From assembly GCA_963727625.1 (NCBI GenBank), contig CAVSHR010000006.1, forward strand, positions 205,547-269,546: a DNA stretch of 64,000 bases, written 5' to 3'. Positions 5,621-22,932 of this stretch are shown piece by piece. Numbering within the stretch: the stretch's first letter is position 1; each line of letters opens with the position of its first letter. The notes beneath the pieces were generated by a model. The model saw only the letters and a program-made list of their open reading frames with translations. It was not told where the DNA came from and ran no database searches. This DNA comes from an uncultured delta proteobacterium. Its GTDB lineage: Bacteria > Desulfobacterota > Binatia > UBA9968. Made by a program: the position numbers and the translations under genes.

Positions 5621-6592
5621 ATGATGAACAAAGTTATTTTAGGCACGGCTCTATTGTTGTTCAGTCTCACCTGTAGCGCCGCTGGACAGCCGGCGAAACC
5701 CTATCGGATCGGGGTTCTTCTTCCCGGCGGCCCTCAGTACGAAACCCTCGACGGACTGCGCCAGGGCTTGAAAGAGCTAGGGCTCCGGGAAGGCAACCAG
5801 TACACTCTGGAGATCAGAGATGTCGAAGGAGATGCAACCGTCGCTCATGAAGGGGCCAGGGTCATGGAAAGAGCCAAAGTCAGTCTTATCTATGCGCTGA
5901 CGACACCAGTCATTACGCAAGCCAAGGCGGCGACAGGTCACACTCCGATTGTCTTTTCGATCGGCAGCGATCCCGTCACCGGCGGGCTGGTCGAGAGTTT
6001 CGCCAAGCCAGGCGGCCGGCTCACCGGAGTCCATTATCTCGTCCGCGATCTCACCGCCAAGCGCCTCGAAGTTTTGAAGGAGATCCTTCCCAAGATCGAC
6101 CGAGTTCTTACCTATTACGATCCCGCCAATCGGGTTGCCGCCGAGGGCGCGACCCTGGCGCGCAACGAGGCGAAACGAATCGGCATCAAGCTCATCGAAC
6201 GGCACGTTAGCTCCGTCGGCGAGCTGAAAAGCGAATTGCACAAGCTTAAGACCGGCGAAGCCGACGCCTTTTTCTTCACCGCGGACCTAATGGTGGGCAG
6301 TCAATCACAACTCATTATCGATAGCACCAAAGCAAAAAAGCTCCCGGCGATGTTTCAGGAGCGAACGCTAGTGGCCCAAGGCGCGCTCGCGAGCTACGGC
6401 CAGAACTACCGAGAGATCGGCCGGCTCTCGGCCAGGTACGTCCAGCAAGTTCTCACCGGCACCCAGCCGAAGGATTTGAAAATCGAGACCGTCGACAGCG
6501 TCGAGCTGGCGATCAACTTGCAGACTGCCAGACAGCTCGGCATTACGATCCCGCCGCAAGTCCTGGCGCGCGCGCAGAAGGTGATCAAGTGA
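5621..6592 (+). CDS. PF04392-type (ABC_sub_bind) periplasmic solute-binding protein, paralogue 1 (divergent)
   Basis: Signal peptide MMNKVILGTALLLFSLTCSAAG, then YRIGVL...GLKELGLREGNQ...AKPGGRLTG...LAINLQTARQLGITIPPQVLARAQKVIK. Confidence 0.85.
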   Translation: MMNKVILGTALLLFSLTCSAAGQPAKPYRIGVLLPGGPQYETLDGLRQGLKELGLREGNQYTLEIRDVEGDATVAHEGARVMERAKVSLIYALTTPVITQAKAATGHTPIVFSIGSDPVTGGLVESFAKPGGRLTGVHYLVRDLTAKRLEVLKEILPKIDRVLTYYDPANRVAAEGATLARNEAKRIGIKLIERHVSSVGELKSELHKLKTGEADAFFFTADLMVGSQSQLIIDSTKAKKLPAMFQERTLVAQGALASYGQNYREIGRLSARYVQQVLTGTQPKDLKIETVDSVELAINLQTARQLGITIPPQVLARAQKVIK

Positions 6593-6594
6593 AG

Positions 6595-7597
6595 ATGGGC
6601 AACAGGCAACAGCGATAAAGCGAAATTCGTTGCTCTCGCGCTCTGCGCTACGCTCTTTGCGCTATTGGGATCTGCTGAGGCGCAGCAGCCGAAGAAAGTC
6701 GAACGCATAGGGTATCTGGTATCAGTTCGTGGTGGGCTCGCGTCGACCGAAGACGCGCTGCGAGCCGGTCTGCGCGAGCTAGACTACATCGAAGGACAGA
6801 ATTTTGTCGTCGAGTCGCGATCTGCCGAAGGGAAGGTCGAGCGGTTACCGGGGCTTGCAGAGGATTTGATACGCCTGAAAGTTGACGTCATCGTTGTCAC
6901 AAGCGTGCAGGGCGCTCTGGCTGCCAAAAAGGCTACTCAATCCATCCCCATTGTCTTTGCCGTCGCTCAAGATCCCGCAGGAAGCGGTCTGGTTGCCAGC
7001 CTTGCGCACCCAGGTGGAAATGTTACCGGAGTGACGGACTTCGCCCGAGAGTTAGCCGACAAGCGGCTGGAACTACTCAAGGAGACCGTTCCCAAGATCT
7101 CACGCCTAGCGCTCCTTTTGTGGAAACCGGCCGGACCGGACTATATGGCCGAGAGAAATGATATCGAGATGGCCGCCACAACCTTGCGAATCAAGATTCG
7201 GCCGGTCGAAGTGGGAAGCGCCAACGAGCTGGAGAGCGCCTTCGTGCGCATGGCCCAGGAGGGCGCCGATGCTTTTATGGGGCTGACGGACACGAGATTC
7301 GCCACCAATCGAAAACGGATCATCGAGCTGGTTGTGAAGAACCGTCTGCCGGCAGTGTATCAGGACTGGGTGTTCGTTCAGACCGGCGGTCTGATGTCTT
7401 ACGGGACAAACCGTGTTCAGTGGCGGCGGCGCATAGCGTGGTACGTCGACAAAATCCTTAAAGGCACGAAGCCGGCTGATCTTCCGGTCGAACGACCAAC
7501 GAAATTCGAATTCGTTGTAAATCTCAAAGCCGCCAAGCGGATCGGCCTGTCGATCCCGCCCAACGTGCTGGTGCGAGCGGATAGGGTGATTCAATGA
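6595..7597 (+). CDS. PF04392-type SBP, paralogue 2 (N-terminus needs a 1-nt frame correction)
   Basis: The continuous ORF starts at TTG 6665, after the signal peptide. The same frame upstream reads KAKFVALALCATLFALLGSAEA but has no start codon. ATG 6595 (MGNRQQR) is one frame off, and the switch lies at an A-run near 6615-6620. Family motifs RIGYL, LRELDYIEGQN, AHPGGNVTG and the C-terminal FEFVVNLKAAKRIGLSIPPNVLVRADRVIQ are present. Confidence 0.75.
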
Positions 7598-8598
7598 AAA
7601 CAAGCCATAGCAAAAAAGCCAGCGTCATTGGCCTTACGCTTTTCGCCATGCTCTTTGCGCTTTGCCGTCCAGCCGAGGCGCAGCAAGCGGAGAAAGTCCC
7701 CCGGATTGGATACCTAAGCGGTAGCCCGCCTTCCGCTATCGCGGAACACAACGAGGCCTTCCGCCAAGGTCTGCGCGAGCTTGGATATATGGAGGGTAAA
7801 AATATTGTGATTGAGTGGCGATCTGCAGAGGGAAAACGTGACCGCCTACCGGCGCTTGCTACCGAGCTAGTGCACCTCAAGGTCGACGTCATCGTGACGG
7901 CTGGACCGTTAGTAACCCGTTCTGCCAAACAAGCAACTTCCACAATTCCGATTGTCATGGCGCAGGATCCCGATCCGGTCCGCAACGGGTTCGTTGCCAG
8001 CTTGGCACGGCCGGGCGGTAACATAACTGGACTTTCCAGAATTGCCCCGGAGCTAAGCGGAAAACAAATGGAGCTTTTGAAGGAGATCGTTCCCATGCTA
8101 TCCCGCGTGGCCGTCTTCGGGACTTCAACCAGGCCGGGAAACGCACAAACGTTAAAAGAAGTGGAACTTGCTGCGGAGGGGTTCGGGGTGAAACTTCAAT
8201 ACCTAGACATCCTAAGTCCCAAAGATATTGTGACTGCATTCCGAGCCGCAGTTAAGGAACGGGCCGACGGCGCACTCTGGATCGTAACGGGCTCGATTGG
8301 GAATCCTCACCGAAAAAAGATTGCGGACCTCGCGGTGAGCAGCCGGCTCCCGGTGATATACTTTCAGCGAGTAGATGTGGAAGCCGGGGGGCTTATGTCC
8401 TACGGGGTGAACGTGGTCGACTTGCACCGCCGCGCCGCGGTGTACGTGCACAAGATCCTGAAGGGCGCCAAGCCGGCTGATTTACCCGTTGAGCAGCCCA
8501 CAAGGTTTGAGTTCGTAGTCAATCTCAAGACCGCGAACCAGATCGGCGTGACGATTCCGCAGAACGTGCTGATGCGGGCGGATCGAGTTATTAGGTGA
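7594..8598 (+). CDS. PF04392-type SBP, paralogue 3
   Basis: ATGA overlap with paralogue 2. Signal peptide ending AEAQQAEKVPRIGYL, then ARPGGNITG and the C-terminal FEFVVNLKTANQIGVTIPQNVLMRADRVIR. Confidence 0.9.
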   Translation: MKTSHSKKASVIGLTLFAMLFALCRPAEAQQAEKVPRIGYLSGSPPSAIAEHNEAFRQGLRELGYMEGKNIVIEWRSAEGKRDRLPALATELVHLKVDVIVTAGPLVTRSAKQATSTIPIVMAQDPDPVRNGFVASLARPGGNITGLSRIAPELSGKQMELLKEIVPMLSRVAVFGTSTRPGNAQTLKEVELAAEGFGVKLQYLDILSPKDIVTAFRAAVKERADGALWIVTGSIGNPHRKKIADLAVSSRLPVIYFQRVDVEAGGLMSYGVNVVDLHRRAAVYVHKILKGAKPADLPVEQPTRFEFVVNLKTANQIGVTIPQNVLMRADRVIR

Positions 8599-8647
8599 AG
8601 AAGTTCGACCCGGAAACCAAATCGGGAGGCGGTTTGCCTATCTGGCG

Positions 8648-8998
8648 CTACCCGACAAACCCATCTACGGGAATTAATCGCTTGGCGACAGGATCGACGC
8701 CGAGAAATAGGCTCTCAAGCGCTACGGCGCCGAGCAGCGGCGGACCGTCGGGCGCGATAAAACACGGAGTCGTGATCTCAGTGCCGTTCAGCGACAAACG
8801 TGCTTCGGCTACCGGCCAGACGTCTCGCTGTCCGCCGGCGATCACAACGCGTTGCGAGCGAGTGGATTTCAGCTCAAGCCTTTCCGCCAGGGACCGTGGC
8901 ACTACGCTAAGAGTCGCACCGGTGTCCACCAAAAGCTCGACTTCTTCGCCACGCCCCGTGGGGCCAGTCAGATGCCCTTTTACGTGGAACAATCCCAT
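8648..8998 (-). CDS. Retropepsin-like (clan AA) aspartyl protease
   Basis: 116 aa carrying the D-T-G signature in EVELLVDTGATLSVVP. Single-domain size is typical of bacterial retropepsin-like proteins. Confidence 0.7.
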   Translation of the reverse strand: MGLFHVKGHLTGPTGRGEEVELLVDTGATLSVVPRSLAERLELKSTRSQRVVIAGGQRDVWPVAEARLSLNGTEITTPCFIAPDGPPLLGAVALESLFLGVDPVAKRLIPVDGFVG

Positions 8999-9074
8999 AT
9001 CAAAGGTCTTCCGAAAAACATGGTCATTGTAGCGCAGCTAGACAACAAAGCAACAAAACTGGTTAGTCTATACA

Positions 9075-9209
9075 GGTTTGCCAACCCACAGATCTCCCGT
9101 CGAGCATCCGACCAAGTTCGAATCCGTGATCAATCTTAAAACCGCCCAGCAGATCGGCATGACGATCGCGCCGAACGTCCTGGCGCGGGCGGATCGGGTC
9201 ATAAGATGA
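9075..9209 (+). pseudogene. 3' stump of a PF04392 SBP paralogue (about 45 codons, one frameshift)
   Basis: Reads (QPTDLP)[40 protein letters not shown]. There is no upstream body. Confidence 0.8.
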
Positions 9210-9300
9210 CAGCACTGAGTTACGAGTGCTGAGGACTGAGGTGGTGATCTGTAAAGACCGGCACTCATGGCTCAGCACGCAGCACGTTTAGGGAGGAGAG

Positions 9301-10266
9301 ATGAGAAATAGTCTATTGCTTCTATTGGTCATAGTGGCCCTGGCCGTTGTCACCGCGGCTCAGGCGCAACAACCAGGGCGGATGCCGCGGATAGGTTATT
9401 TAAACATCGGGTCCAAAGTCGAGCGGCCATCTGAAGCATTCCTCCAAGGGCTGCGCGATCTCGGCTATGTCGAGGGAAAGAACATCATCATCGAGTACCG
9501 AGGGGATCCCCAAAGAAGGGAAGATCGACTGCCGGAGTTGGCGGCGGATCTGGTCCGTCTCAAAGTAGCCGTTATCGTTGCCCTGAGCCCACCGGCGGCG
9601 CGCGCCGCAAAGAACGCCACTCAGACAATCCCCATCGTCATTAGGACCACGGGAGACCCGGTTCGGGCAGGATTTGTTCAAAGTCTTGCTCGGCCGGGCG
9701 GAAATATCACGGGCGTTACCTCCATCTCATCGGAGTTATATGGCAAGCGGTTGGGGCTGCTCAAAGAGGTGATCCCGGGACTTTCCCGCGTGGGCGTTTT
9801 GCACAATCCGGACCGCAGCAACTTCAAGAAAATGCAGAGTGCGGCCAGGCCGCTAGCGTTGGAGCTTCGATCCTTAGAGGTCCGAACTTCGAATGATTTT
9901 GCCCCTGCGTTCACAACCGCAACCCGAGCCCACGCTCAAGCGCTCATCACCATAAGGACTCCACTTTTGAATAATCACCGAAAACAGATTGCCGAGTTGG
10001 CGATAAAGAGGCGGCTGCCGTCGATTTACGATGAAGTGCAATATGTCGATGTTGGCGGCCTGATGTCTTATGGGACGCACTTGGGTGACCTGCACCGGCG
10101 CGCCGCGGTTTTCGTCGACAAGATCCTCAAAGGAACTAAGCCGGCCGACATCCCAGTGGAGCAGCCAACGAAATTCGAGTTCGTGATCAATCTTAAAACC
10201 GCCAAGCAGATCGGTCTGACGATCCCGCCGAATGTGCTGGCGCGGGCGGACAGAGTAATTAGGTAA
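9301..10266 (+). CDS. PF04392-type SBP, paralogue 4
   Basis: RBS GGGAGGAGAG. Signal peptide, then PRIGYL, LRDLGYVEGKN, ARPGGNITG and [30 protein letters not shown]. Confidence 0.9.
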   Translation: MRNSLLLLLVIVALAVVTAAQAQQPGRMPRIGYLNIGSKVERPSEAFLQGLRDLGYVEGKNIIIEYRGDPQRREDRLPELAADLVRLKVAVIVALSPPAARAAKNATQTIPIVIRTTGDPVRAGFVQSLARPGGNITGVTSISSELYGKRLGLLKEVIPGLSRVGVLHNPDRSNFKKMQSAARPLALELRSLEVRTSNDFAPAFTTATRAHAQALITIRTPLLNNHRKQIAELAIKRRLPSIYDEVQYVDVGGLMSYGTHLGDLHRRAAVFVDKILKGTKPADIPVEQPTKFEFVINLKTAKQIGLTIPPNVLARADRVIR

Positions 10267-10313
10267 GTCCTGATCGGCGGACCGGTAATTTTCAAGAAAA
10301 GGAGGTGCAAGGC

Positions 10314-11288
10314 ATGATCACAAGGTCTCTCACCGTCCTGTTCGCTTGTGCGATTCTGTTGTTTCACGAACCCAGCCAAGCGCAACAGCCGAAGCGAATC
10401 TGGCAGATCGGTTTGTTCCATGTGGGGTTGGACCATGTTCCGCCGTCATTTCCCGCGCTAAGGGAAGCAATCAAAGAACTGGGCTACGAAGAGGGAAAAA
10501 ACAGCCATTTGGACTGGCGCAACCTGCCCGACGATGCGGCGGCCCTTGCTACCGCCCAAGAATTTACCCGCCAACCGGTCGATTTGATCGTGGCCTTTGA
10601 GGACCAGACGATTCGCGCTGCCAAGGCAGCCACCTCTGAAGTGCCAGTTTTATTCCTGCACGCGAATGCTCCTGTGAAGGATGGGTTTGTGAAAAGTTTT
10701 GCCCACCCTGGCGGTAATATGACCGGCTTCGTCACATGGCCCGTGTCCTATGGCAAGCGTGTCGAATTGTTCAAAGAGTTGATTCCTGATCTCCGCAGTC
10801 TGCTCCTGATCGCTCATCCGGACGATCCCGTCGGGCATCGCTGGCTGCAAGAAATGCGCAGCGCCGGCGCCGCGCTGAAGCTTCGTTTGATCGAGCGCGA
10901 AGTCAGCAATCAAGCGGAAATCGAACGGGTGATGCGGTCCGTAAGGCGAGATGAAGTCGGCGGAGTCTTGGTAGCGTCTCTGATTCTCCGCAACAGTTAC
11001 AGTTCGCTGATCGTCGATATTGCCTCGGAGCGGCGTCTACCCTTGGGGATGCATCGCAAAGAATGGGTCGAGCGGGGCGCGTTGTTTTCCTATGCGGCGG
11101 ACCTCGCCTCCGTCGGCCGGGCCGCCGCCCCCTATGTCGACAGGATTCTCAAAGGTACCAAGCCGGCGGATCTGCCGGTCGATCAGGTATCGCGATTCGA
11201 GCTGGTGATCAATCTGAAATCAGCCCAGAAACTTGGCCTGACGATTCCCCAATCGGTTCTGTTTCGCGCAACCAAGGTGATCAAATGA
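10314..11288 (+). CDS. PF04392-type SBP, paralogue 5 (divergent)
   Basis: AAAGGAGG lies 6 nt upstream of ATG 10314. Signal peptide ends SQAQQPKR, then AHPGGNMTG and FELVINLKSAQKLGLTIPQSVLFRATKVIK. Confidence 0.85.
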   Translation: MITRSLTVLFACAILLFHEPSQAQQPKRIWQIGLFHVGLDHVPPSFPALREAIKELGYEEGKNSHLDWRNLPDDAAALATAQEFTRQPVDLIVAFEDQTIRAAKAATSEVPVLFLHANAPVKDGFVKSFAHPGGNMTGFVTWPVSYGKRVELFKELIPDLRSLLLIAHPDDPVGHRWLQEMRSAGAALKLRLIEREVSNQAEIERVMRSVRRDEVGGVLVASLILRNSYSSLIVDIASERRLPLGMHRKEWVERGALFSYAADLASVGRAAAPYVDRILKGTKPADLPVDQVSRFELVINLKSAQKLGLTIPQSVLFRATKVIK

Positions 11289-11385
11289 TCGAGCCGAAGT
11301 CGCAAGTCGCGGAGGGCGAAACACGGCCCCTAGGAAACCTCGCAAGCGATAGCCCAATTAATTAAATCCTTCAAGGAGGTGGGTT

Positions 11386-11977
11386 ATGACGCGCAACAAA
11401 ATGATTTTGTCCGTGCTGCTGGCGGCCATCGTCCACGCGGGCGGAGCATGGGCACAACAATAGTTCACCATCAAGAATCTTGTCGAGAAAAAGGTGTAAG
11501 AGTCACCGGCAGGGTCGCTTTACTGGCGGATCGAGAACTTTGCCGGCCTCGCCGAGGCGCAGGCCGCCGCCGGTCCTACGGCACTGGCAGCTCCATCGAT
11601 GGGCAAGGTTTGGCTCTTTACGCTCGGCGGCACCGGTGGATCAACACCGGGAGGCATCAAGGTCCTGAGGTCGGACCCATTCCCCTGTTCGTTGCGCCGG
11701 ACTATCTCCTGCGTATCAACGAGGCGAGCGGCCCTCCTGGCAGCGTAACGTCCCAGCACACTCATCCGGGCTTCGAGACCTTCTACGTGCTCGCTGGGGA
11801 GCAAACCATTCGTACGCCTCAAGGCGTGCTCCGTGTTCGGGCTGGCCAACCCGCGACCGACCGTGACGCAGACAATCCGATGCGTTCTCGAGCAGCGGCT
11901 CGACAGATCTTCACTCCTTGGCGATGTTCGTGGTAGATGCCACCAGGCCTTTTTCATATCCGGCCACGCTGCCCTAG
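11386..11977 (+). pseudogene. Decayed secreted cupin-domain gene
   Basis: AAGGAGG plus ATG 11386 gives the signal peptide MTRNKMILSVLLAAIVHAGGAWAQQ. An in-frame TAG follows at 11461 and a TAA about 33 nt later. The cupin core (SQHTHPGFETFYVLAGEQTIRTPQG) and the C-terminus (TDLHSLAMFVVDATRPFSYPATLP-TAG 11975) lie in two other frames. Confidence 0.6.
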
Positions 11978-11997
11978 GCTGGCTGCGGTCCCGCATA

Positions 11998-12048
11998 CTC
12001 TCGATTCCTCCGAACGTGCTGGCGCGGGCGGATCGGGTGATCAAATGA
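11998..12048 (+). pseudogene. 3' stump of a PF04392 SBP paralogue (about 16 codons)
   Basis: Reads [19 protein letters not shown] with no upstream SBP body. Confidence 0.7.
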
Positions 12049-12241
12049 CCTACGGGAATGCTCGGATCGAACTTTGTTCTCCATCAACTAAGTGTCGCAT
12101 GAAGCCAAACTGAAGCGTAGTTCAGTTCAATCGGACGTTGAATGAGCATCTTCCCCCGAAGCACCGGTTCCCTTTCCACTATAATTCTTATTATTCTCAG
12201 CTTCCGTCTTTATCTTACATACGCTCGCGAACGAGGTGGAT

Positions 12242-13225
12242 ATGAAAAGACTTGGTTCACTATCAATCCTGGTTGCAGTGAGTTTGCTTACTGTTGCGAT
12301 TCCGGCCGAGGCGCAGCAGGCAGTTCAACCGGCGCGTATCTGTTGGCTTTCCGCCGGTGGGGGCGGTGATCATTTGGCTCTCAATGCATTCCGCGACGGC
12401 ATGCGTGACCTAGGGTACGTTGAAGGCCGCAATCTAGTGATCGATGCACGTTGGGGCGATGGATCTAAAAAGCTCCTCGACCAGTACGCGGTCGAGCTAG
12501 TACGCTCAAGCCCCCGGGTGCTCGTGACGCAAGCAGGACAGGCGATCTTTGCCGTACGTCGGACAAAGCCGACGATCCCGATCGTGTTCGGGCTCAGCGG
12601 CGATCCGGTGGAAGCTGGATTAGTCGACAGCTTCGCGCATCCCGGCGGTAATTTTACCGGCGTGTCTTTTCTTTCCCTTGACCTTGTCGGCAAGCGCATG
12701 GTGCTGCTGAAGGAAACCATTGTCTCGCTCAAGCGCGTCGCCGTGCTCGCTAATCCGAGTCATCCAGGCGAGAAAAGCGAGCAGAGCGCAACCCGCGCTG
12801 CGGCAAAAGCGCTCGGTCTCGATTTTGAGTATTTTCCGGCACGGCCAGGACAGGATTACGACCGCGTCCTTCCCGCCGTCGCCAAATCTCGTAGCCAAGC
12901 GTTATTTGTTTTTCCCGATGCTGGAGTAATCGGAAACAGTGAAAAGATCGCCGCCTTCTCAGTGAAGAATCGCATCCCGGCGATGTCCGGTTGGGCCGAA
13001 TTTGCCGAGCGAGGAAATCTTATGACCTACGGTCCAATTTTGAATGAAGGTTACCGGCGGCTGGCAACGTACGTCGATAAAATTCTTAAGAGAGCCAAGC
13101 CGATGGATCTGCCGGTCGAGCTGCCGAAGAAGTTCGAGCTAGTGATCAATCTGAAAACCGCCAAGCAGATCGGCCTGACGATTCCGCCGAACGTGCTGGC
13201 AAGGGCAGACAGGGTCATTCGATGA
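12242..13225 (+). CDS. PF04392-type SBP, paralogue 6
   Basis: Signal peptide ending AEAQQ, then MRDLGYVEGRN, AHPGGNFTG and [30 protein letters not shown]. Confidence 0.9.
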   Translation: MKRLGSLSILVAVSLLTVAIPAEAQQAVQPARICWLSAGGGGDHLALNAFRDGMRDLGYVEGRNLVIDARWGDGSKKLLDQYAVELVRSSPRVLVTQAGQAIFAVRRTKPTIPIVFGLSGDPVEAGLVDSFAHPGGNFTGVSFLSLDLVGKRMVLLKETIVSLKRVAVLANPSHPGEKSEQSATRAAAKALGLDFEYFPARPGQDYDRVLPAVAKSRSQALFVFPDAGVIGNSEKIAAFSVKNRIPAMSGWAEFAERGNLMTYGPILNEGYRRLATYVDKILKRAKPMDLPVELPKKFELVINLKTAKQIGLTIPPNVLARADRVIR

Positions 13226-13251
13226 ATGGTCAGGCGAAAAGCTTGAGTTTC

Positions 13252-13716
13252 TCAGCTCTGAAGAAAATCGCACAGGACCAGTATTTCGATGGCGTTAACT
13301 TTCTTCACGCGCTTATCGTTGGTCAAAAACAGAGTGGCCTCCTGTTGAATGGCCGCAGCGATTTGCAGGGCATCGGGCAGCCGGAGCGTGTAGCGCGCCC
13401 GAATGAGCGCCGCGGCTTCAGCCAGTTTCTCGTCGATTGTTACGACGGAGAGCGAAGCGAAAGACTTCAGGCTGAATTTGATTTCATCGGCCAGAGAAAA
13501 GTTCTTATCGGCAAACGGTTTTGCGAGGATCTCGGCCAGTGTCACGGCCGAGGTGACGGCACGCAGAGCATGATTCTCCAAAAGACTAAATACCGGATCG
13601 AGAAGATCGGCATACGGAGTAACTTCCTCGATATAATAAATGAAGGGCGCGGTATCGAGACCAACGACCTTGTGCTTTTCGATGACCCGTCGCAGTCTAT
13701 GCGCGTTGCCATTCAT
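13252..13716 (-). CDS. vapC: PIN-domain toxin VapC
   Basis: 154 aa with PIN acidic residues in context (VVGLDTAPFIY, TLAEIL, LPDALQIAAA, FLTNDKR). It overlaps the upstream antitoxin gene by 20 nt. Confidence 0.85.
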   Translation of the reverse strand: MNGNAHRLRRVIEKHKVVGLDTAPFIYYIEEVTPYADLLDPVFSLLENHALRAVTSAVTLAEILAKPFADKNFSLADEIKFSLKSFASLSVVTIDEKLAEAAALIRARYTLRLPDALQIAAAIQQEATLFLTNDKRVKKVNAIEILVLCDFLQS

Positions 13717-13942
13717 CCCGCAGCTTCTCTAGATAGGCATCAATCTTGGCGCGACTGCCCCAGGTGCCTTTGCCGAGACCGCGCAGACGCCCGGCAGAAC
13801 TTTTCGGTTTAGGCCGGAGGATAATTTTGTTGCCCTCAACGACAGCGGCCAACTGGTCGCCGGGCTTTAAGTCCAAGCTCTTGCGGATCTCTTTGGAAAT
13901 GACGATTTGCGACTTTTGATTAAGAGTTAGCACCGATTCCAT
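13697..13942 (-). CDS. vapB: AbrB/SpoVT-domain antitoxin VapB
   Basis: 81 aa. N-terminal swapped-hairpin-type motif (QIVISKEIRKSLDLKPGDQLAAVVEGNKIILRP). GGAG RBS. Confidence 0.8.
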   Translation of the reverse strand: MESVLTLNQKSQIVISKEIRKSLDLKPGDQLAAVVEGNKIILRPKPKSSAGRLRGLGKGTWGSRAKIDAYLEKLRDEWQRA

Positions 13943-13951
13943 AATTATACT

Positions 13952-13968
13952 CCAAATGATCGATTTGG
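13952..13968. promoter_or_regulatory. Candidate VapB operator
   Basis: Inverted repeat CCAAAT-N5-ATTTGG lies immediately upstream of the vapB start, inside a TTGATT-N17-TAAATT promoter-like region on the minus strand. Confidence 0.35.
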
Positions 13969-14009
13969 GATAAATTTATCAGACTTGGGTTACTGAATCA
14001 ACTGACACA

Positions 14010-14078
14010 ACCGCGAAACAAATCGGCCTGACGATCCCGCCGAATGTGTTGGCGCGGGCGGACCGGGTCATCAGATGA
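14010..14078 (+). pseudogene. 3' stump of a PF04392 SBP paralogue (22 codons)
   Basis: Reads [25 protein letters not shown] with no upstream body. Confidence 0.8.
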
Positions 14079-14158
14079 CACTGCTGAGGACTGAGTTGAA
14101 AATCAGGAAAAACTCAGTACTCATGGCCCAGCACTCAGGACTTCCGTGGGGCGGAGCG

Positions 14159-15139
14159 ATGAAAAATATTTATTGTTTTCTTTTAATCGTCGCGTACTTG
14201 GGCGGCGGTGCAATCGCCGAGGCGGAGCAGCCGAAGAAGGTCTCTCGGATAGGGTATCTATCGGCGCTCTCACAACCCGCTGACTCTTACCGCAGCGAGG
14301 CATTCCGCCGAGGGCTGCGCGAGCTCGGCTATGTCGAGAAAAAAAACGTCACCATCGAATACCGATATGCGAAAGGTAAGGTCAATGTCCTCTCCGAGCT
14401 TGCGGCCGAGCTTGTTCGTCTCAAAGTAGACATCATTGTTACGCAGAGCACGCTCGATGCCTATGCTGCCAGGCAATCGACAAGCGCAATTCCCATCGTC
14501 ATGATCGCCAGCGACGATCCGGTGGGCACCGGGCTCGTCGCCAGCCTGGCGCGGCCTGGTGGTAACATCACCGGGCTGACATCTCTTTCCCGGGAGCTAA
14601 GCGGTAAGCGGCTGGAGCTGCTCAAGGAGGCGGTACGCGGACTCGCGCGCGTGGCGGTCCTCTGGAATGCGGCTAACCCAGACAAGGCCCGCGATGTCGA
14701 AGCGACGCAGGTCCAGGCAAGAACGTTAGGTCTAGAGCTTCAATCCCTAGAGGTGCGGGGTCCCGATGATTTTGACGGCGCATTCCAAACCGCCACCAGA
14801 AAGCGTGCTGGCGCGCTCCTCATGTTAGCAGACCCCTTGACCATTACTTATCAATCACGGATCGTAAACCTGGCGACAAAAAGCCGGCTGCCGTCGATGC
14901 ATGAGCAGAGGGAGTTTGTGGATGCTGGAGGCCTGATGGCCTATGGGCCCAGCCTTCTCGGTCTGTTCCGGCACGTCGCTACCTATGTGGACAAGATTCT
15001 CAAAGGCGCCAAGCCTGCCGACCTCCCTGTGGAGCAGCCGACGCAGTTTGAGCTGGTCATCAACCTGAAGACCGCTAAGAACATCGGCCTTACCCTCCCG
15101 CCTGAACTGCTTGCCCGGGCAAACAAAGTTATTAAATGA
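14159..15139 (+). CDS. PF04392-type SBP, paralogue 7
   Basis: The track ORF begins at 14075 inside the spacer. ATG 14159 (GGAGCG upstream) starts the signal peptide MKNIYCFLLIVAYLGGGAIAEAEQPKKVSRIGYL. ARPGGNITG is present and the C-terminus reads FELVINLKTAKNIGLTLPPELLARANKVIK. Confidence 0.9.
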   Translation: MKNIYCFLLIVAYLGGGAIAEAEQPKKVSRIGYLSALSQPADSYRSEAFRRGLRELGYVEKKNVTIEYRYAKGKVNVLSELAAELVRLKVDIIVTQSTLDAYAARQSTSAIPIVMIASDDPVGTGLVASLARPGGNITGLTSLSRELSGKRLELLKEAVRGLARVAVLWNAANPDKARDVEATQVQARTLGLELQSLEVRGPDDFDGAFQTATRKRAGALLMLADPLTITYQSRIVNLATKSRLPSMHEQREFVDAGGLMAYGPSLLGLFRHVATYVDKILKGAKPADLPVEQPTQFELVINLKTAKNIGLTLPPELLARANKVIK

Positions 15140-15249
15140 TAGCGCGCCTTGCATGTGGAATCTTTTGCCTCTCGAAGAGAAGGATCTTTCAGCACTCGGC
15201 CAGATAAATGCGCCATGGACAACCTGGGCTCCTAAGAAGGGATAGAACG

Positions 15250-15792
15250 ATGAAGAGAAAAAAGCCTCTCATGGCAATCTTTCTAGGCGGCCTGCTTCTC
15301 CTGCTATCGACGCCGCTTCTTGCGGTGAACGTCGGGGATAAGGCACCGGACTTTGAACTTCCCAGCACGAGAGGAGGAAAACTCAAGCTGAGCAGCCTTC
15401 GGGGGAGAAATGTGCTGATTAACTTTTACCTCACTGATTACAGCCCCACGTGAACCAAGCATATTCTCTCGTCCGGTGCGGACAATTACGCAAAGTTCAA
15501 GGCAGAGAATACCGAGGTTTTGGGCATAAGCGCCAATGCGCCCTTTTCTCAAAAGGCCTTCGCGGAGTTTCTGAAATTGAATTATCCCCTTCTCAGTGAT
15601 TCTCAGGACCAAAAGGTCATGAAGTCCTACGGCGTATTCGACAAAGCGAGCGGCGGTGTCAAGCGTTCGTATTTTCTTATCGACAAGAAGGGCATTGTCC
15701 GTTTCAAGAGCGTCAGGCCCAGCGCCCTGGAACAAGACCTTCTCTCCACCGACGAGCTACTGAAAGAGGTCAAGAAAATCAACAAAGGTTAG
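15250..15792 (+). CDS. Secreted BCP/PrxQ-type peroxiredoxin with in-frame UGA (candidate selenocysteine)
   Basis: Track ORFs 15208..15453 and 15520..15792 share one frame, with TGA at 15451-15453. The joined product has a signal peptide, then [12 protein letters not shown]...[50 protein letters not shown]...[14 protein letters not shown]. The UGA sits at the peroxidatic Cys position (D-x-T-P-G-C-T in PrxQ). Confidence 0.75.
15471..15483 (+). promoter_or_regulatory. SECIS-like hairpin after the Prx-1 UGA
   Basis: GUCCG-GUG-CGGAC (alternatively a GGUGC loop) starts about 17 nt after the UGA. Short stem, so weak on its own. Confidence 0.3.
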
Positions 15793-15797
15793 GGAAG

Positions 15798-15902
15798 CAG
15801 CCGACCAAATTCGAGCGGGTAATTAATATCAAGGCCGCCAAGCAGATCGGTCTGACGATCCCGCCGAATGTGCTGGCGCGGGCGGACAAAGTGATTCGAT
15901 AG
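15798..15902 (+). pseudogene. 3' stump of a PF04392 SBP paralogue (34 codons)
   Basis: Reads [37 protein letters not shown] and begins 5 nt after the Prx stop. Confidence 0.8.
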
Positions 15903-15942
15903 CATTTTCGGCTTTGGATTTTCGATTTGAGGGAAACGAACG

Positions 15943-16992
15943 ATGAATGTAGTTTCTTTGAAGAGAATTTCCGAGCCTTACTCCGACAATCTAAAATCGG
16001 CAATCCAAAATCCAAAATGGTGGGGAATCTTTGCATTCTCGCTCGCATTGGTCTTCGGTGGGTTTGAGGCACGGGCGCAGGAGCAACGCAAAATCCCCCG
16101 GATCGGCTATTTGTCCAACACCGATCCAGATCGAGATTCCGCCCGTGCCACGGCCTTTAAGCTTGCACTGCGCGACCTGGGGTACATCGAAGGAAAAAGC
16201 GTCGCCATCGAGTACCGAGACGCTAGGGGCGGGCGCGATCGGCAACGGAAATACGCTGCCGAGCTGGCGAGTTTGCCCGTCAATTTAATCTTTGCAACGT
16301 CAACAACAATGGCCCTGGCTGCCAAAAGTTTCACCAAAGCGATTCCAATCATCTTTCTTAGTGCCACAGAGCCTGTGACATCGGGACTCGTAAAGAGCCT
16401 GGCACGCCCCAGCGGAAATCTTACAGGGTTTGCCACGATCGCAGCGGCATTAGCTGGCAAACGCTTGGAGTTGCTCAAGGAGACCCTTCCCAACCTTACG
16501 CGACTCGCCATCTTGTGGCAGCCGCAAAATAAAGGATCTGAAGAATCGTGGAAGGAAAGCCAACTGGCGGCTCGACAGCTCGGCTTGAAGATCCATTCCA
16601 TGGAGGTCAGCAGCCCTGACAAGTTCGAGAGCGCTTTCGGTCTTGCGAGCAAGGCGAACAGCGATGCGCTAGCCGTGACGTTGAGTAGTTTATTCAGTTT
16701 AAATCGAAAATTGATTGTTTCCCTAGCAGCCAAACATCGGCTACCCGCGATCTACACGCGCGATGAATTCGCCGATAGGGGTGGTTTGATGTCCTATGGT
16801 GCAGATGAAGGTGAGCCATTCAAGCGCATCGGCGTGATGATCGACAAGATTCTGAAAGGCGCGAAGCCTGCCGACCTACCAGTAGAGCAGCCGACGAAGT
16901 TCGAGTTGGTCATCAATTTAAGAACGGCCAAACAGATCGGCCTCACTATCCCGCCCAACGTGCTGGAAAGGGCGGATCGGGTGATCAGATGA
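15943..16992 (+). CDS. PF04392-type SBP, paralogue 8
   Basis: Long N-terminus, then WWGIFAFSLALVFGGFEARAQEQRKIPRIGYL, ARPSGNLTG and [30 protein letters not shown]. Confidence 0.85.
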   Translation: MNVVSLKRISEPYSDNLKSAIQNPKWWGIFAFSLALVFGGFEARAQEQRKIPRIGYLSNTDPDRDSARATAFKLALRDLGYIEGKSVAIEYRDARGGRDRQRKYAAELASLPVNLIFATSTTMALAAKSFTKAIPIIFLSATEPVTSGLVKSLARPSGNLTGFATIAAALAGKRLELLKETLPNLTRLAILWQPQNKGSEESWKESQLAARQLGLKIHSMEVSSPDKFESAFGLASKANSDALAVTLSSLFSLNRKLIVSLAAKHRLPAIYTRDEFADRGGLMSYGADEGEPFKRIGVMIDKILKGAKPADLPVEQPTKFELVINLRTAKQIGLTIPPNVLERADRVIR

Positions 16993-17085
16993 CAGGACTG
17001 AGGGCTGAGCAATGAGTGCGAGTCTCCGGGCCTCTCCAACTCAGTACTCAGTCTTCGCTGGTCAGTCCTTTGCTGAAGAGGAGCG

Positions 17086-18066
17086 ATGAAAACCATTCCA
17101 TGCCTAATCCTAATCATCGGGTTGATGGGCGGTGGCGCAATCGCCCAGGCGCAGCAGCCAAAGAAAATCCCGCGGATAGGATTCCTCTATAGCGTTACCT
17201 CTTCCTCGGTGGCGGCCCGCGCCGAGGCATTCCGGCAAGGTCTGCGCGAGCTTGGCTACATTGAAGGGAAGAACATTGTTATTGAGTGGCGATTTGCAGA
17301 GGGAAAACTAGATCGCCTCCCCGCGCTTGTGTCGGAGCTGGTGCGTCTTAAGGTAGACGTGATCGTCACGAGTGGCTCGTCACCAACCCGCTCTGCCAGG
17401 AAAGCAACTGTTTCGATTCCCATTGTGATGGCGCGCGAAACCGATCCTGTTGGGAATGGATTCGTCGCCAGCTTGGCGCGGCCTGGCGGGAACATCACTG
17501 GATTGTCAATTCTCGCCCCGGAGATAAGCGGGAAACAGGTGGGGCTTTTGAAGGAGATTGTTCCCAGGCTCTCACGCGTGGCCGTCCTCGGGACTTCGAC
17601 CACTCTAGGTTGGGCACACTCGTTAAACGAGATGGAGATCGCTGCGGGGGCATTGGGAGTGAAGCTTCAGTACCTAGATGTGCTAAATGTCAAAGACATT
17701 GTGACTGTATTCCGAGCCGCAATTGAGGAGCGTGCTGACGCAGTCCTCGTGCTAGGGAGCCCAATTTACGCTTCTCATCGAAATCAGATTGCGGGCATCG
17801 CGGTAAAAAGCCGGCTTCCGACGATATACCGCAATTCACAATATGTGGAAGCCGGGGGACTTATGTCCTACGGGGTGAACCTGCCCGACTTGGACCGGCG
17901 CGCCGCTATTTATGTGGACAAAATTCTGAAAGGCAGGAAACCCGCAGACCTTCCCGTAGAGCAACCGGTCAAGTTCGAGTTTGTCATCAACCTGAAAACA
18001 GCAAAGCAAATCGGACTCACGATTCCGCCCAATGTACTTGCGCGGGCGAATAAAGTAATAAGGTGA
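17086..18066 (+). CDS. PF04392-type SBP, paralogue 9 (start-stop coupled to the histidine kinase)
   Basis: Signal peptide ending AQAQQPKKIPRIGFL, then ARPGGNITG and [30 protein letters not shown]. Its stop TGA (18064-18066) overlaps GTG 18063 of the kinase ORF. Confidence 0.9.
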   Translation: MKTIPCLILIIGLMGGGAIAQAQQPKKIPRIGFLYSVTSSSVAARAEAFRQGLRELGYIEGKNIVIEWRFAEGKLDRLPALVSELVRLKVDVIVTSGSSPTRSARKATVSIPIVMARETDPVGNGFVASLARPGGNITGLSILAPEISGKQVGLLKEIVPRLSRVAVLGTSTTLGWAHSLNEMEIAAGALGVKLQYLDVLNVKDIVTVFRAAIEERADAVLVLGSPIYASHRNQIAGIAVKSRLPTIYRNSQYVEAGGLMSYGVNLPDLDRRAAIYVDKILKGRKPADLPVEQPVKFEFVINLKTAKQIGLTIPPNVLARANKVIR

Positions 18067-20492: not shown

Positions 20493-20650
20493 GACGGCAA
20501 GAGTAAGAGACCGGGCGTAAGGCAAGTAATGCAGGATCTCTCGAGGAATTTAATCCTGAGCCGATTCGACTTTGCGTCGGGTAAACTTCGCCGAAGGCCT
20601 CAAAAATGTTTTTGGCTTTGCCAGTGGAAGCACCCCGAAGGGAAAAAATA

Positions 20651-21625
20651 ATGCGACAGTGGTTCATCTTCTTCGTACTGCTCGCCGTTAGCGTTTCACG
20701 AACTTGCGATGTGATTGCAGCCGAGCGCGCCCTGCCGGTCAGGATCGGCGTGCTTACGGAGGGATTTGGGCCGACCACCGGTGCAGTAGGCCTGCGGGAT
20801 GGGCTTAAGGGACTTGGTTACCGGGAGGATAAAGATTTCGTGATCGGCGTCCGATTTACTCAGGGCGATGCCTTGGCGCTTCCCGAGGCGGTTAGGAAAC
20901 TTATCCGGCAAGGAGTGGATATTCTGATCACAGAGGGACGGAGCGCAGCAAAGGCAGCTCAACTGGAAACCAAAGTATTGCCGATCGTCTTTGCCGGAGG
21001 TGGCGATCCGGTCGGGTTCGGTCTGATTCGGAGCTTTGCCCGTCCTGGAACTAATATTACGGGTGTAAGCGATCTCGATATTGAGTTGGGCCCCAAGCGC
21101 CTTGAGATTTTTAAGGAGATGATCCCCGAGCTAAATCGTGTGTTATTCCCCTACGATGCGACCGATGCCTACAGCGTTTCCGAGGCGAAGGCGTATCGCG
21201 ATGCCGCGCGTCGGCTCAGAATCGCGCTGATTGAGAAAGAGCTGCGCACTGAGGATGAGGCAAAATCGGTCCTGGGCAAGTTAAGAAAAGGCGACATCCA
21301 CGGCATCCTGTCACCACGTCCGATGACAGCGAATATTCCTGGATACGTCCGCGAGGCGGGTTCCCGGTCTTCCATACCGACGATGTTTGCCGCGACTTTT
21401 TTTGCGGAGAATGGTGGCCTCGCAAGTTACACTCCCAATTCCTACGAATCCGGCCGAATGGCGGCGCGGCTGGTGGACAAGATTCTAAAAGGCGAGAGTC
21501 CCGGTAAAATCCCCGTGGAGGTGAACAACAAGATCGAACTGGTTATCAACCTGAAGGTTGCGAAGGCATTGGGGATCAAGATCGCCCCGCAGGCGTTGTA
21601 TAAGGCAAACCGAGTCATCCGATGA
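20651..21625 (+). CDS. PF04392-type SBP, paralogue 10 (divergent)
   Basis: Signal peptide MRQWFIFFVLLAVSVS, then VRIGVL, LKGLGYREDKD, ARPGTNITG and IELVINLKVAKALGIKIAPQALYKANRVIR. Confidence 0.85.
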   Translation: MRQWFIFFVLLAVSVSRTCDVIAAERALPVRIGVLTEGFGPTTGAVGLRDGLKGLGYREDKDFVIGVRFTQGDALALPEAVRKLIRQGVDILITEGRSAAKAAQLETKVLPIVFAGGGDPVGFGLIRSFARPGTNITGVSDLDIELGPKRLEIFKEMIPELNRVLFPYDATDAYSVSEAKAYRDAARRLRIALIEKELRTEDEAKSVLGKLRKGDIHGILSPRPMTANIPGYVREAGSRSSIPTMFAATFFAENGGLASYTPNSYESGRMAARLVDKILKGESPGKIPVEVNNKIELVINLKVAKALGIKIAPQALYKANRVIR

Positions 21626-22905: not shown

Positions 22906-22932
22906 GAGCCACCCACTCTGGAGGTAACCAAC

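Follow-up and report, generated by a model that had tools for sequence, protein, structure and literature searches.

Why do short 3′ ends of genes persist, still open to their stop codons, behind small genes that are unrelated to them? The question is raised by a 64,000-nucleotide stretch of DNA from an uncultured member of the Binatia (the window), which holds 11 full genes for substrate-binding proteins (SBPs) of family PF04392. A first-pass annotation had picked out four C-terminal SBP pieces within this array, each directly preceded by an unrelated cassette.

Gene tails in a tandem array

Searches of the window with tblastn (query S4, one of the SBP genes) and with a 340-column profile HMM made from its 11 SBPs find exactly four isolated C-terminal pieces, all on the plus strand and each running to a stop codon, with peptides that agree with those first reported. 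Stump 1 (st1; 9078..9209, ~44 codons; HMM-aligned 9096-9206, columns 304-340, E = 7e-17) has kept its right two thirds in good condition; the left third has decayed, and degraded sequence continues leftward to about 9058-9078. Stump 2 (st2; 11998..12048, 16 codons plus stop; columns 325-340, E = 0.035) gives the weakest HMM match of the four, but over its final 45 nt it matches an intact tail of related locus L017 at 96 % identity. Stump 3 (st3; 14010..14078, 22 codons plus stop; columns 319-340, E = 1e-8) has positional orthologues in L031 and L023, and stump 4 (st4; 15798..15902, 34 codons plus stop; columns 307-340, E = 7e-14) is the last of the series. These results support the view that the stumps are genuine remnants of SBP genes: each is the 3′ end of a PF04392 paralogue and lies in non-coding DNA. 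A fifth case proposed at 22284-22310 falls away, being a 13-nt match with no HMM signal that is loosely conserved in orthologous spacers of L010 and L001 and absent in L006. The method detects no N-terminal stumps in the window, but it is blind to such pieces when they are shorter than 30 codons.

The full SBP genes around the stumps also lie on the plus strand. S3 (7594..8598; columns 18-340, E = 1e-142) stands to the left of cassette 1, S5 (10305..11288) to the left of cassette 2 and S6 (12236..13225) to the left of cassette 3; S4 (9301..10266), identified by both Pfam and the HMM, has orthologues of 75-80 % identity in L164-L166, and S7 (14159..15139), in an ORF open from 14075, has orthologues of 80-88 % identity in L077-L089. 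S8 (15943..16992) and S9 (17086..18066) follow, and the S9 stop overlaps the start of a histidine kinase gene (18063-20492), an SBP-kinase pairing that is kept in related loci. Like S3, genes S5 to S9 are full-length by the HMM.

Two kinds of short element mark the spacers. A palindromic element, GCTGAGGACTGAG...ACTCATGGCTCAGCAC, occurs upstream of S4 (9210..9300, plus strand), again 3′ of st3 in the spacer upstream of S7 (14079..14158, plus strand), and 3′ of intact S8; the S4-upstream spacer has a homologue in L164, and the predicted fold of the element is no better than that of shuffled sequence. The intact S8-S9 junction (16993..17085, plus strand), which carries this element, serves as an in-window model of the ancestral arrangement of full gene, spacer and next gene. 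The interval from stump 4 to the body of S8 contains an inverted pair of AAAATC/GATTTT repeat elements (15903..16020); the ~32-nt element is found in either orientation at SBP junctions of L077, L083, L121, L042, L041 and L046.

The cassettes

An unrelated cassette does precede each stump, and cassettes occur in both orientations. Cassette 1 (8648..8998, minus strand) encodes a retropepsin-like aspartyl protease (Pfam Asp_protease_2, E = 8e-13). In L041, a distant analogue (6821-7219, minus strand) adjoins a stump; it was recognized by eye, through its VFVDSGATFSILS motif, and gives no tblastn match. Cassette 2 (11379-11936, plus strand) has a signal peptide, in-frame stops and one frameshift, and its description as a cupin pseudogene is plausible but weak, with Pfam Cupin_2 as the sole match (E = 1.4e-4, below the gathering threshold). 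Cassette 3 (minus strand) comprises vapC (13252-13716; Pfam PIN domain) and a MazE/AbrB-type antitoxin gene (13697-13942; Pfam), with 80-86 % amino-acid identity to L031 5645-6332 and the same stump junction. Cassette 4 (15250..15792, plus strand) encodes an AhpC/TSA peroxiredoxin (Prx; Pfam AhpC-TSA, E = 1e-34) with an in-frame TGA at 15451-15453, at a codon position that is the same in L077 and L078. Adjacency of S7 and Prx recurs in at least 10 loci, and cassette 4 is a conserved partner of S7 rather than a recent arrival.

Junctions shared with relatives

Stumps of this kind are widespread, with 29 C-terminal stumps beside 193 full genes in one set of related, Binatia-like loci (1.05 Mb) and 21 beside 137 in a second (0.46 Mb), or ~50 per 1.5 Mb. 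Nearly all keep the exact stop codon and vary at their 5′ ends, and several carry internal stops or frameshifts. Most begin at HMM column 296 or beyond; uniform breakpoints would predict that 87 % exceed 45 codons.

Several junctions are held in common by loci whose flanks differ. The vapBC-stump junction is common to the window and L031, and to L023 before a 52-nt deletion at the stump's 5′ edge that the window and L031 show relative to L023. This one junction occurs in three contexts, the right neighbour being S7, a response regulator that starts 11 nt past the stump stop (L031) or another SBP; the left SBP is non-orthologous in L031, and the L023 left flank is cut by the contig end. Likewise, the junction between the Prx stop and the stump in the S7-SecPrx-stump unit is identical in L077 and the L078-81/L087-89 group, and the left junction of st4 is the same in L077, L078 and L079, which differ in their right flanks; the one in the L078-81/L087-89 strain group is a convergent unrelated gene. 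L082 and L085 have S7-SecPrx with a shorter stump (columns 321-340) that falls outside the junction alignment.

The first-pass annotation took the array for a recurrent landing site. Recurrence for small accessory modules holds, and recent landing in this genome does not, because the same junctions occur in other metagenome-assembled genomes with differing flanks. Its further proposal, that cassettes overwrite the 5′ part of a paralogue, is supported in part. The uninterrupted state that it had asked for exists for st1: in L164 and L166 the gene immediately preceding the S4 orthologue is a full-length SBP gene whose tail is homologous to st1, and the hairpin spacer is the same as in the window. 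The paralogue that precedes S7 orthologues survives in graded form, as a 166-aa fragment or a stump of 67, 22 or 15 codons, next to differing toxin-antitoxin (TA) modules or none. Overwriting does not describe L078, in which the S7 body is followed by a foreign tail, a stop and the AAAATC element; after these come the 8 final codons that S7 had originally, its former spacer and Prx. Here the tail of the S7 orthologue has received a copied segment that brought its own tail, and the gene's old last 8 codons are pushed downstream. Because this S7 orthologue is still intact, a stump is not by itself proof that a paralogue was destroyed.

Exchange among tails

The paralogues are most alike at their 3′ ends. 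Nucleotide identity is 0.40-0.60 in the body versus 0.62-0.70 in columns 291-340, and exact runs of at least 20 nt occur in 8 % of tail pairs versus 0.6 % of body pairs. Where the amino acid is the same, codon identity in the body is 0.41 within the locus versus 0.39 between genomes, and in the tail it is 0.574 versus 0.474 (columns 301-320) and 0.575 versus 0.512 (columns 321-340). Concerted evolution is confined to the tail. Orthologues of S7 point the same way, with a pS of 0.24-0.40 in the body versus 0.43-0.76 in the last 34 codons, a pattern showing that intact orthologues swap their last ~34 codons.

The stumps, too, do not behave as neutral orthologous DNA. Window stumps are 84-85 % identical to tails in the window versus 70-78 % to their positional orthologues. 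In comparisons of 14-34 codons each from few independent lineages, the stump families have non-neutral pN/pS values of 0.09 (mini-tail; pS 0.71), 0.20 (Prx-linked, st4; pS 0.64) and 0.32 (vapBC-linked, st3; pS 0.61), and their pS exceeds that of neighbouring genes (0.24-0.49). The vapBC stump, compared between the window and L031, has 30 % divergence versus 32 % at fourfold sites, with 6/6/9 differences at the three codon positions, and alone is compatible with neutral decay. The first-pass annotation ascribed the retention of open stumps to recent events or to signals for the next gene; neither fits protein-like substitutions, excess synonymous divergence and a stump family whose next gene is convergent and unrelated. 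A better fit is exchange with intact tails.

A proposed recombination zone and its alternatives

We propose that the last ~40-50 codons are a recombination and gene-conversion zone that refreshes stumps and moves tail-flanked cassettes, a proposal to which we give an even chance. The tail is the natural candidate for such a zone because it is the only highly DNA-similar stretch of otherwise diverged paralogues. A stump could arise in two ways, by loss of a paralogue body beside an accessory module or by copying of a tail-carrying segment into the tail of an intact gene, with displacement of the old tail, as in L078. Intact tails would then repeatedly overwrite other tails, stumps included, so that stumps would remain open and conserved over roughly the length of the homology zone, and sequence further 5′ would decay or be deleted. 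A small gene set between a full-gene tail and a stump would be flanked by two homology arms and could be copied into another tail; copying between two neighbouring tails would replace a paralogue body, which is the overwriting first proposed, and a crossover within a stump would bring in a different right-hand sequence. Comparison with related genomes suggests that a conserved gene tail can act as a recombination handle, by which leftovers look intact and small genes travel along.

We infer that the agent is RecA-type recombination and that cassettes travel by recombination between tails; the movement is read from end states, because no event has been caught between near-identical strains. For most pairs, tails would be a poor RecA substrate because they are short and their median longest exact match is 11 nt, and the first formation of a cassette-stump junction falls outside what homology explains. 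The low stump pN/pS could instead reflect selection on a translated peptide, as the L077 and L078-L081 copies contain a 36-aa ORF that begins with GTG.

Plain gene decay is improbable in our judgment, yet it deserves real weight. A paralogue would have been destroyed in each case by a separate insertion-plus-deletion, with the stump as its neutral residue; the C-terminal bias would arise because the C terminus is the most conserved and most recognizable part, and because deletion is slow to remove short relics caught between selected genes. Detection does favour this end, with C-terminal fragments of at least 16 codons found in 89-100 % of cases and N-terminal fragments of up to 34 codons in 0-43 %, and the 5′/3′ asymmetry of short stumps is partly a detection artefact. 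N-terminal relics are visible by eye, as signal peptide plus tail (L008, L052, L046) and as composites of n-region plus tail. The full-length st1 counterpart in relatives, the neutral rate of the vapBC stump and odd replacements at conserved positions of st1 and st4 (FESV, FERV) are likewise what decay would produce. However, decay would leave neither the low pN/pS and raised pS of positional-orthologue stump families, nor identical junctions in unrelated contexts, nor an L078 stump formed without gene loss, nor exact stops in nearly all stumps with 5′ ends that vary.

Selection on signals is a doubtful explanation. The next gene would take its promoter, leader or ribosome-binding site from the last 15-45 codons and the spacer, and only deletions sparing them would survive. 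The almost always intact right edge of stop codon and spacer agrees with this idea; in packed arrays the tail supplies the next gene's Shine-Dalgarno sequence (the ATGA overlap of S2 and S3; the L031 response regulator), and a stump falls in a divergent promoter region where the TA cassette is on the minus strand. Yet the L078-81/L087-89 stump is well preserved before a convergent unrelated gene, window stumps are separated from the next start downstream by 41-188 nt, more than a ribosome-binding site would allow, stump variation tracks codons (third positions, R/K swaps, stop to stop) with no motif pattern, and a promoter scan gave no enrichment.

Site-specific integration, whether integron-like or targeted to gene 3′ ends, is very improbable. 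A dedicated recombinase would use a site in the SBP tail, the cassette would bring a replacement tail, and the stump would correspond to attR or attC. The arrangement of intact gene, cargo and duplicated 3′ end is the product of integrases that target gene 3′ ends, and L078 has an intact gene with a displaced tail; cargo consists mostly of TA modules, as in chromosomal integrons, and the last 20 SBP codons show raised synonymous conservation. Even so, the tail lacks an invariant core, its synonymous identity being only 0.47-0.56, cassettes lie in both orientations, and junctions range over HMM columns 264-327, which bears out the first-pass argument against a single recombinase site. No recombinase was seen in the window, where no ORF read between 5.4 and 26.5 kb resembles one and, between 29 and 64 kb, all 8 of the 10 large ORFs searched that have Pfam matches are housekeeping or regulatory (MreB, RodA, SurA and others); none was noticed among the cassette intervals listed across related loci.

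It is equally hard to credit that the stumps encode small tail proteins, some with a signal peptide, kept by protein-level selection: the pN/pS of 0.09-0.32, the 36-aa ORF (GTG-EQPTKFE...) annotated by gene callers in the L078, L080 and L081 records, the same GTG start read in L077 and the in-frame ORFs of signal peptide plus tail in L008 and L052 would agree with it, but window st3 and st4 lack an in-frame start codon, several stumps have frameshifts or internal stops, and protein-level selection leaves synonymous divergence above that of neighbouring genes unaccounted for.

Comparison with known systems

In multigene families, gene conversion keeps pseudogene fragments similar to functional paralogues. 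The stumps resemble such converted pseudogenes in having coding-like substitutions and in being nearer to paralogues of the same genome than to the positional orthologue; they differ from general pseudogene conversion in that the tract is only the last ~40-50 codons and is linked to where accessory genes sit within a tandem array. Elements that integrate at gene 3′ ends (tRNA, tmRNA and protein genes) carry a replacement end and leave an intact gene, their cargo and a duplicated 3′ end, and chromosomal integrons hold cassettes with attC and a cargo rich in TA modules. L078 and the TA-rich cargo here recall both, whereas no integrase is seen here, there is no fixed core site, junctions vary and cargo lies in both orientations.

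Orphan rhs-CT and cdiA-CT modules lie downstream of the main toxin gene (PMC3967940). As in our loci, 5′-truncated fragments keep a conserved region of the full-length genes, and this region is a substrate for homologous recombination that re-assorts the attached sequence. The rhs/cdi fragment, however, is the variable functional end, activated by recombination, whereas the fragment here is the conserved end, has no apparent function by itself and lies downstream of the cargo. Homology in Salmonella rhs/cdi extends over 522 bp at 95 % (PMC3967940), versus about 100 bp at 65-90 % here.

The minimal mobile elements (MMEs) of Neisseria (Saunders & Snyder 2002, in PMC3787668) are variable small gene sets between conserved flanks; the same gene organization occurs in distant genomes and a different one in close genomes, and exchange is ascribed to homologous recombination in the flanks without transposase or integrase. 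The window array also has variable small gene sets and conserved flanks, with no transposase or integrase seen. By contrast with the MMEs, the array offers a much shorter stretch of homology, at an identity of only about 65-90 %, and its 'flanks' are tails of ~50-130 nt that belong to a multi-copy paralogue family; one of these flanks is a non-coding stump. An MME occupies one orthologous site; with multi-copy tails as flanks, a cassette here could therefore dock at many places per genome.

Results

A tandem SBP array with four isolated C-terminal stumps

Eleven full-length genes for PF04392 (ABC_sub_bind) substrate-binding proteins (SBPs), S1–S11, occupy 5.5–26.4 kb of the window, all on the plus strand (S4 matches Pfam PF04392 with E = 6e-47), and the remainder is core chromosome that includes mreB, rodA, surA and a leucyl aminopeptidase gene, among others of this kind. 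The array showed no genes for an ABC permease or ATPase. The stop codon of S9 overlaps the start of a large gene for a histidine kinase (18063–20492). This pairing, in which an SBP gene lies directly 5′ of the gene for a large sensor histidine kinase of ~800 aa or overlaps it, is conserved across 76 or more loci and often repeated within a MAG (window 17086–20492; L001–L076). On the related P0014 contig the orthologous kinase carries the annotation dCache-HAMP-GAF-HisKA-HATPase; these ‘transporter’ binding proteins may partner the kinase in sensing.

The first-pass annotation had described four SBP stumps, a claim borne out by tblastn and by a profile HMM built from the eleven genes (340 columns). 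The window holds exactly four isolated C-terminal pieces, all in frame to a stop codon: st1 (9096–9206, columns 304–340, degraded further left to about 9058–9078), st2 (11998–12045, columns 325–340), st3 (14010–14075, columns 319–340) and st4 (15798–15899, columns 307–340). Each matches the profile significantly, is collinear with the C-terminus and ends at the family stop position. A possible fifth stump was not accepted: it is a 13-nt match that one orthologous spacer lacks and two others keep only loosely. Compared with the most similar full-length gene in the window, the stumps show 72–85% DNA identity and are thus not fresh copies of any gene there; window stumps are also closer to in-window tails (the last ~40–50 codons of SBP genes; 84–85%) than to their own positional orthologues (70–78%).

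Pfam also upheld the presence of a small unrelated cassette before each stump, namely a retropepsin-like protease (minus strand), a cupin-like pseudogene (plus strand, with weak Pfam support), vapBC (minus strand) and a UGA-containing peroxiredoxin (Prx; plus strand). The cassettes measure 0.4–0.8 kb and contain nothing else. In the third, a predicted PIN toxin gene is preceded by a small DNA-binding antitoxin gene that overlaps it by 20 nt, as in type II (VapBC) toxin–antitoxin (TA) modules (PF01850, E = 6e-15; PF04014, E = 2e-9). The Prx of the fourth (15250–15792; AhpC/TSA; ...SPT-U-TKH) has an in-frame TGA at 15451–15453, and a second AhpC/TSA Prx, its paralogue SecPrx2 (21659/21692–22249; ...QPT-U-AAN), has one at 21911–21913. 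The UGA stands at the catalytic Cys position and occupies the same codon in the window, its orthologues in L077 and L078, and the paralogue, which suggests that it encodes selenocysteine in both window proteins; a simple fold of the 60 nt downstream, where a SECIS hairpin would be expected, is no better than shuffled sequence. The UGA-containing Prx is a conserved partner of S7 and did not arrive as a foreign insertion. Further right, the block of kinase, S10, SecPrx2, Prx3, response regulator and response-regulator/cyclase (window 20606–24424) keeps its gene order in L001 and L010. In L006 there is a stump of 39 codons after Prx3, in L047 one after the response regulator, and in L031 the cyclase-type regulator comes directly after the vapBC stump.

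Stumps across related genomes

Relatives were collected via the kinase, S7 and S4, and almost all are MAGs labelled Candidatus Binatia or ‘Deltaproteobacteria’; the closest kinase loci (L001–L003, L010) end at or near the kinase, so that the region upstream of it lies outside them. Kinase relatives at 65–84% aa identity also occur in MAGs labelled Eisenbacteria, Chloroflexota, Limnocylindrales, Verrucomicrobiia, Udaeobacter and Acidiferrales (L001, L003, L009, L012, L024, L030, L046), labels that more likely reflect mis-binned Binatia contigs than a true distribution.

Applied to six-frame translations of these loci, the same HMM found 29 isolated C-terminal stumps beside 193 full genes in the window plus 76 kinase-anchored loci (1.05 Mb), and 21 beside 137 full genes in 87 further loci (0.46 Mb), 8 of these 21 being one stump repeated across near-identical strains. 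Stumps usually start at or beyond profile column 296 of 340, and nearly all reach a stop codon. The DNA between full gene and stump is typically 0.5–1 kb and most often carries a minus-strand PIN or MazF TA pair; other cargo includes retropepsin, peroxiredoxins and AAA/DUF4143-type genes. The stump pattern belongs to the lineage and is not peculiar to the window locus.

In a detection simulation, 89–100% of C-terminal fragments of at least 16 codons were recovered, versus 0% of N-terminal fragments of 16–22 codons, 43% of those of 34 codons and 78% of those of 45 codons, so the apparent lack of short 5′ stumps is largely a detection effect. The excess of C-terminal stumps of up to 45 codons is real despite this bias. 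By eye, several ‘solo’ stumps are a signal peptide or n-region joined to a tail (L008, L052, L046, L077, L121). Two in-frame mini-ORFs that link an SBP signal peptide directly to the last ~22 codons (L008 ~16190–16320; L052 ~6640–6798) are internal deletions whose products may still be expressed and exported. One SBP gene, in L037, is split into an N-terminal part (416–847, HMM columns 18–161) and a C-terminal part (2030–2581, columns 159–340); the ~1.2-kb insert is possibly an insertion sequence, which would be a different route to SBP inactivation.

Shared junctions and variable content

The window, L077, L078 and L079 share an identical Prx–stump junction, in which G-G/T-G-A/G-AGCAGCCGAC comes after the Prx stop codon. 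Beyond the stop codon of this stump the sequences are unrelated, with an SBP gene in the window and L077 versus a convergent hydrolase gene in L078–L081. The vapBC–stump unit is likewise homologous end to end between the window and L031 (~77–85% DNA identity, the same junction), where it lies between an S9-like SBP gene on the left (67% identity, versus 45% to S6) and a response regulator on the right. L023 has the same vapB–stump arrangement with a longer stump; a 52-nt deletion at the 5′ edge of the stump is common to the window and L031, indicating that stump erosion proceeds from the 5′ side. Both organizations, vapBC–stump (window, L031, L023) and Prx–stump (window, L077, L078), are thus kept in distant genomes, as in minimal mobile elements (MMEs), and unit-specific homology stops at the stump stop codon. 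The suggestion that the open stumps may reflect recent events does not hold for st3 and st4, whose junctions are shared with other genomes while their flanks differ: the cassette–stump junctions are old, and the units appear to travel. A duplicating unit of stump plus next gene was rejected for st3 and st4, where the stump keeps its left cassette and the right neighbour changes. Co-transfer of the left tail with vapBC gave no signal, the left gene of L031 being S9-like throughout.

The uninterrupted ancestral state that the first-pass annotation proposed to look for is seen for st1. In L164 (827–1813) and L166 (6989–7954), a full SBP gene lies directly 5′ of the S4 orthologue (75–80% aa identity); its tail aligns with st1, its downstream spacer has the same palindromic element as the st1–S4 spacer, and it has no orthologue among S1–S11 (at most 57% identity). 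No full-length counterpart at the same position was found in relatives for st2 or st4. L166 also has a minus-strand PIN gene between two full-length SBP genes (6393–6779) with no detectable stump, so TA modules also occupy plain intergenic sites in SBP arrays.

Upstream of S7 orthologues, gene content varies between the same conserved flanks, again in the manner of MMEs. This position holds a 166-aa paralogue fragment after a plus-strand MazE–PIN pair on the P0014 contig, a 67-codon stump after a plus-strand PIN gene in L082, the 22-codon st3 after a minus-strand AbrB–PIN pair in the window, and a 15-codon mini-tail with the cassette absent in L077. Varied modules and breakpoints at one position support the earlier proposal of a recurrent landing or replacement site.

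The SBP tail as a proposed zone of exchange

Mean nucleotide identity among paralogues is 0.40–0.60 in the body of the gene and 0.62–0.70 in columns 291–340, and exact runs of at least 20 nt occur in 8% of tail pairs versus 0.6% of body pairs. As a measure of concerted evolution we used codon identity at columns where the amino acid is the same; this identity within a locus versus between genomes was 0.41 and 0.39 in the body, 0.574 and 0.474 in columns 301–320, and 0.575 and 0.512 in columns 321–340. In intact S7 orthologues, pS is 0.24–0.40 in the body versus 0.43–0.76 in the last 34 codons, indicating that tails have been exchanged.

In L078 and near-identical strains, the body of the S7 orthologue is followed by a foreign ‘T-type’ tail, a stop codon, an AAAATC-repeat element, the last eight original codons, the original spacer and Prx. 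Judged from this order, a segment with its own tail was copied into an intact gene's tail; the gene itself survived whole, and what had been its tail became a stump. The composite of T-type tail, stop codon, AAAATC element and 15-codon mini-tail is present three times in L121 and also in L077, L042, L041 and L046. The observations that bear on recombination tracts in the flanks are tail swapping, raised synonymous divergence of tails and stumps, and the displaced tail of L078; no donor–recipient pair was found among near-identical strains. A nearest-neighbour and mosaic analysis of stump halves was uninformative, dozens of tails from other genomes being 85–96% identical over 45 nt.

Two spacer elements accompany these junctions. 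The AAAATC/GATTTT repeat (~32 nt, AATCTAAAATCGGCAATCCAAAATCCAAAAT) lies at junctions between SBP genes in many MAGs, in one orientation or the other (L077 9878–9916; L121 ~7000–7030, ~8170–8200 and ~9290–9320; L078 1786–1850; L042, L041, L046, L083). In the window its copies form an inverted pair between st4 and the S8 body (15903–15930, minus; 15987–16020, plus), and in plus orientation it encodes the n-region (NLKSAIQNPKW) of S8-type signal peptides. A palindromic element (GCTGAGGACTGAG ... ACTCATGGCYCAGCAC) precedes S4, S7 and S9 (9210–9300, 14079–14158, 16993–17085) and the S4 orthologue in L164 (~1815–1910), with 8 matches to the pattern versus 1.25 expected in shuffled sequence. RNA folds of the spacers, including the palindromic hairpins, of the AAAATC inverted pair and of the post-UGA regions did not beat shuffled sequence (z −1.8 to 0), and a promoter and terminator scan showed no enrichment over it.

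Substitution pattern of the stumps

In dead stumps evolving neutrally, differences should fall equally on all three codon positions and accumulate at roughly the rate of synonymous change in adjacent genes. Nei–Gojobori counts between positional orthologues, on short sequences from few lineages, gave pN/pS of 0.09 (pS 0.71) for the mini-tail stumps, 0.20 (pS 0.64) for the Prx-linked st4 family and 0.32 (pS 0.61) for the vapBC-linked st3 family, beside a pS of 0.24–0.49 in the adjacent S7, Prx and vapBC genes. A coding-like pattern with excess pS is as expected if stumps are replaced by the tails of other, functional paralogues. Plain gene decay combined with detection bias, which we consider unlikely, would predict the even pattern instead, and low pN/pS with pS above that of the neighbours counts against it; it accommodates the vapBC stump pair of the window and L031, which alone is compatible with neutrality, and the scarcity of short 5′ stumps.

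Discussion

The first-pass observation is confirmed and its interpretation partly supported. We observed the anatomy and distribution of the stumps, shared junctions, tail swapping, a displaced tail and characteristic substitution patterns, and propose an account that we regard as evenly poised between right and wrong: the tail is a homology zone in which frequent recombination and gene conversion refresh stumps, mobilize tail-flanked modules and re-assort flanks. The last ~40–50 SBP codons would form this zone. Stumps would be refreshed from intact tails and remain recognizable only across it, while sequence to its 5′ side would decay, as in the left third of st1, or be deleted, as in the 52-nt case. 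A module between a full-gene tail and a stump would have two homology arms; copied into one tail it would displace that tail, as in L078, and copied between two successive tails it would replace a paralogue body. Crossovers inside the stump would re-assort the right flank, and the first cassette–stump junction presumably arose by illegitimate deletion or insertion. We infer RecA-type recombination as the agent, and the actual movement of cassettes. The earlier idea that cassettes overwrite paralogues fits copying between successive tails and the full counterpart of st1, but not the L078 stump, which formed with its gene intact. More tentatively, and with a lower chance of being right, the SBP tail could be a recombinase-free docking site, with stump-bearing modules hopping among the dozens of tandem SBP genes of a genome, and between Binatia genomes, either by insertion into a tail, which would spare the gene but displace its old tail, or by paralogue replacement, and with conversion from intact tails keeping the stump competent, a RecA-driven analogue of the integron with mainly TA passengers.

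Open stumps had also been tentatively ascribed to selection on signals needed by the next gene, here taken as downstream expression signals. Such a signal would not track codon structure, as the variation in stumps does, and would be irrelevant where the following gene is convergent; we judge this reading quite improbable.

A site-specific, integron-like system is more improbable still. The cassettes encode no integrase. We saw no adjacent IntI-like tyrosine-recombinase gene or other recombinase in the window among ten of the large ORFs at 29–64 kb, searched with Pfam (8 with hits, housekeeping or regulatory) or in ORF translations at 5.4–26.5 kb read by eye, and noticed none by eye among the largest ORFs of 29 cassette intervals in related loci. 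Stump starts span HMM columns 264–327, leaving no fixed core and bearing out the earlier argument from varied breakpoints against a single site-specific site, and tails reach a synonymous codon identity of just 0.47–0.56. An identical att-like core was also sought and rejected, the tail of the left gene and its stump showing only family-level similarity (63–83%). That stumps are translated micro-proteins has an equally slim chance, as peptide-level selection alone would not raise pS, and a small ORF common to all stumps was rejected, being absent from st3 and st4.

The spread of TA modules and small accessory genes that lack mobility genes is a long-noted puzzle. If exchange anchored in SBP tails is real, it would give such genes a concrete, testable route without a mobility gene of their own, and a large paralogue family would double as a set of landing pads. 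More generally, a short gene fragment in a multigene family can be open and conserved without being recent or under selection; conversion can keep such fragments fresh, which makes them misleading for dating events. If the model fails, what remains is an ordinary case of gene decay, in an array with fast turnover from an uncultured soil lineage.

Our literature search on PF04392 arrays, and on TA modules with gene remnants and tandem paralogues, found no prior description. The L078 S7 orthologue, with a restored 3′ end and the displaced end as a direct repeat, matches what integrative elements that target 3′ ends produce, but those elements encode their own integrase, unlike the window cassettes. 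Orphan rhs/cdi modules are truncated gene pieces that retain a homology stretch for recombination with the main gene (PMC3967940). The closest concept is the minimal mobile element of Neisseria, in which variable cassettes between conserved flanks are exchanged by homologous recombination (PMC3787668). In contrast to both, homology here is confined to very short arms, the tails of a paralogue family with many copies; one of the arms is a stump and does not code for protein, and a genome has dozens of such sites.
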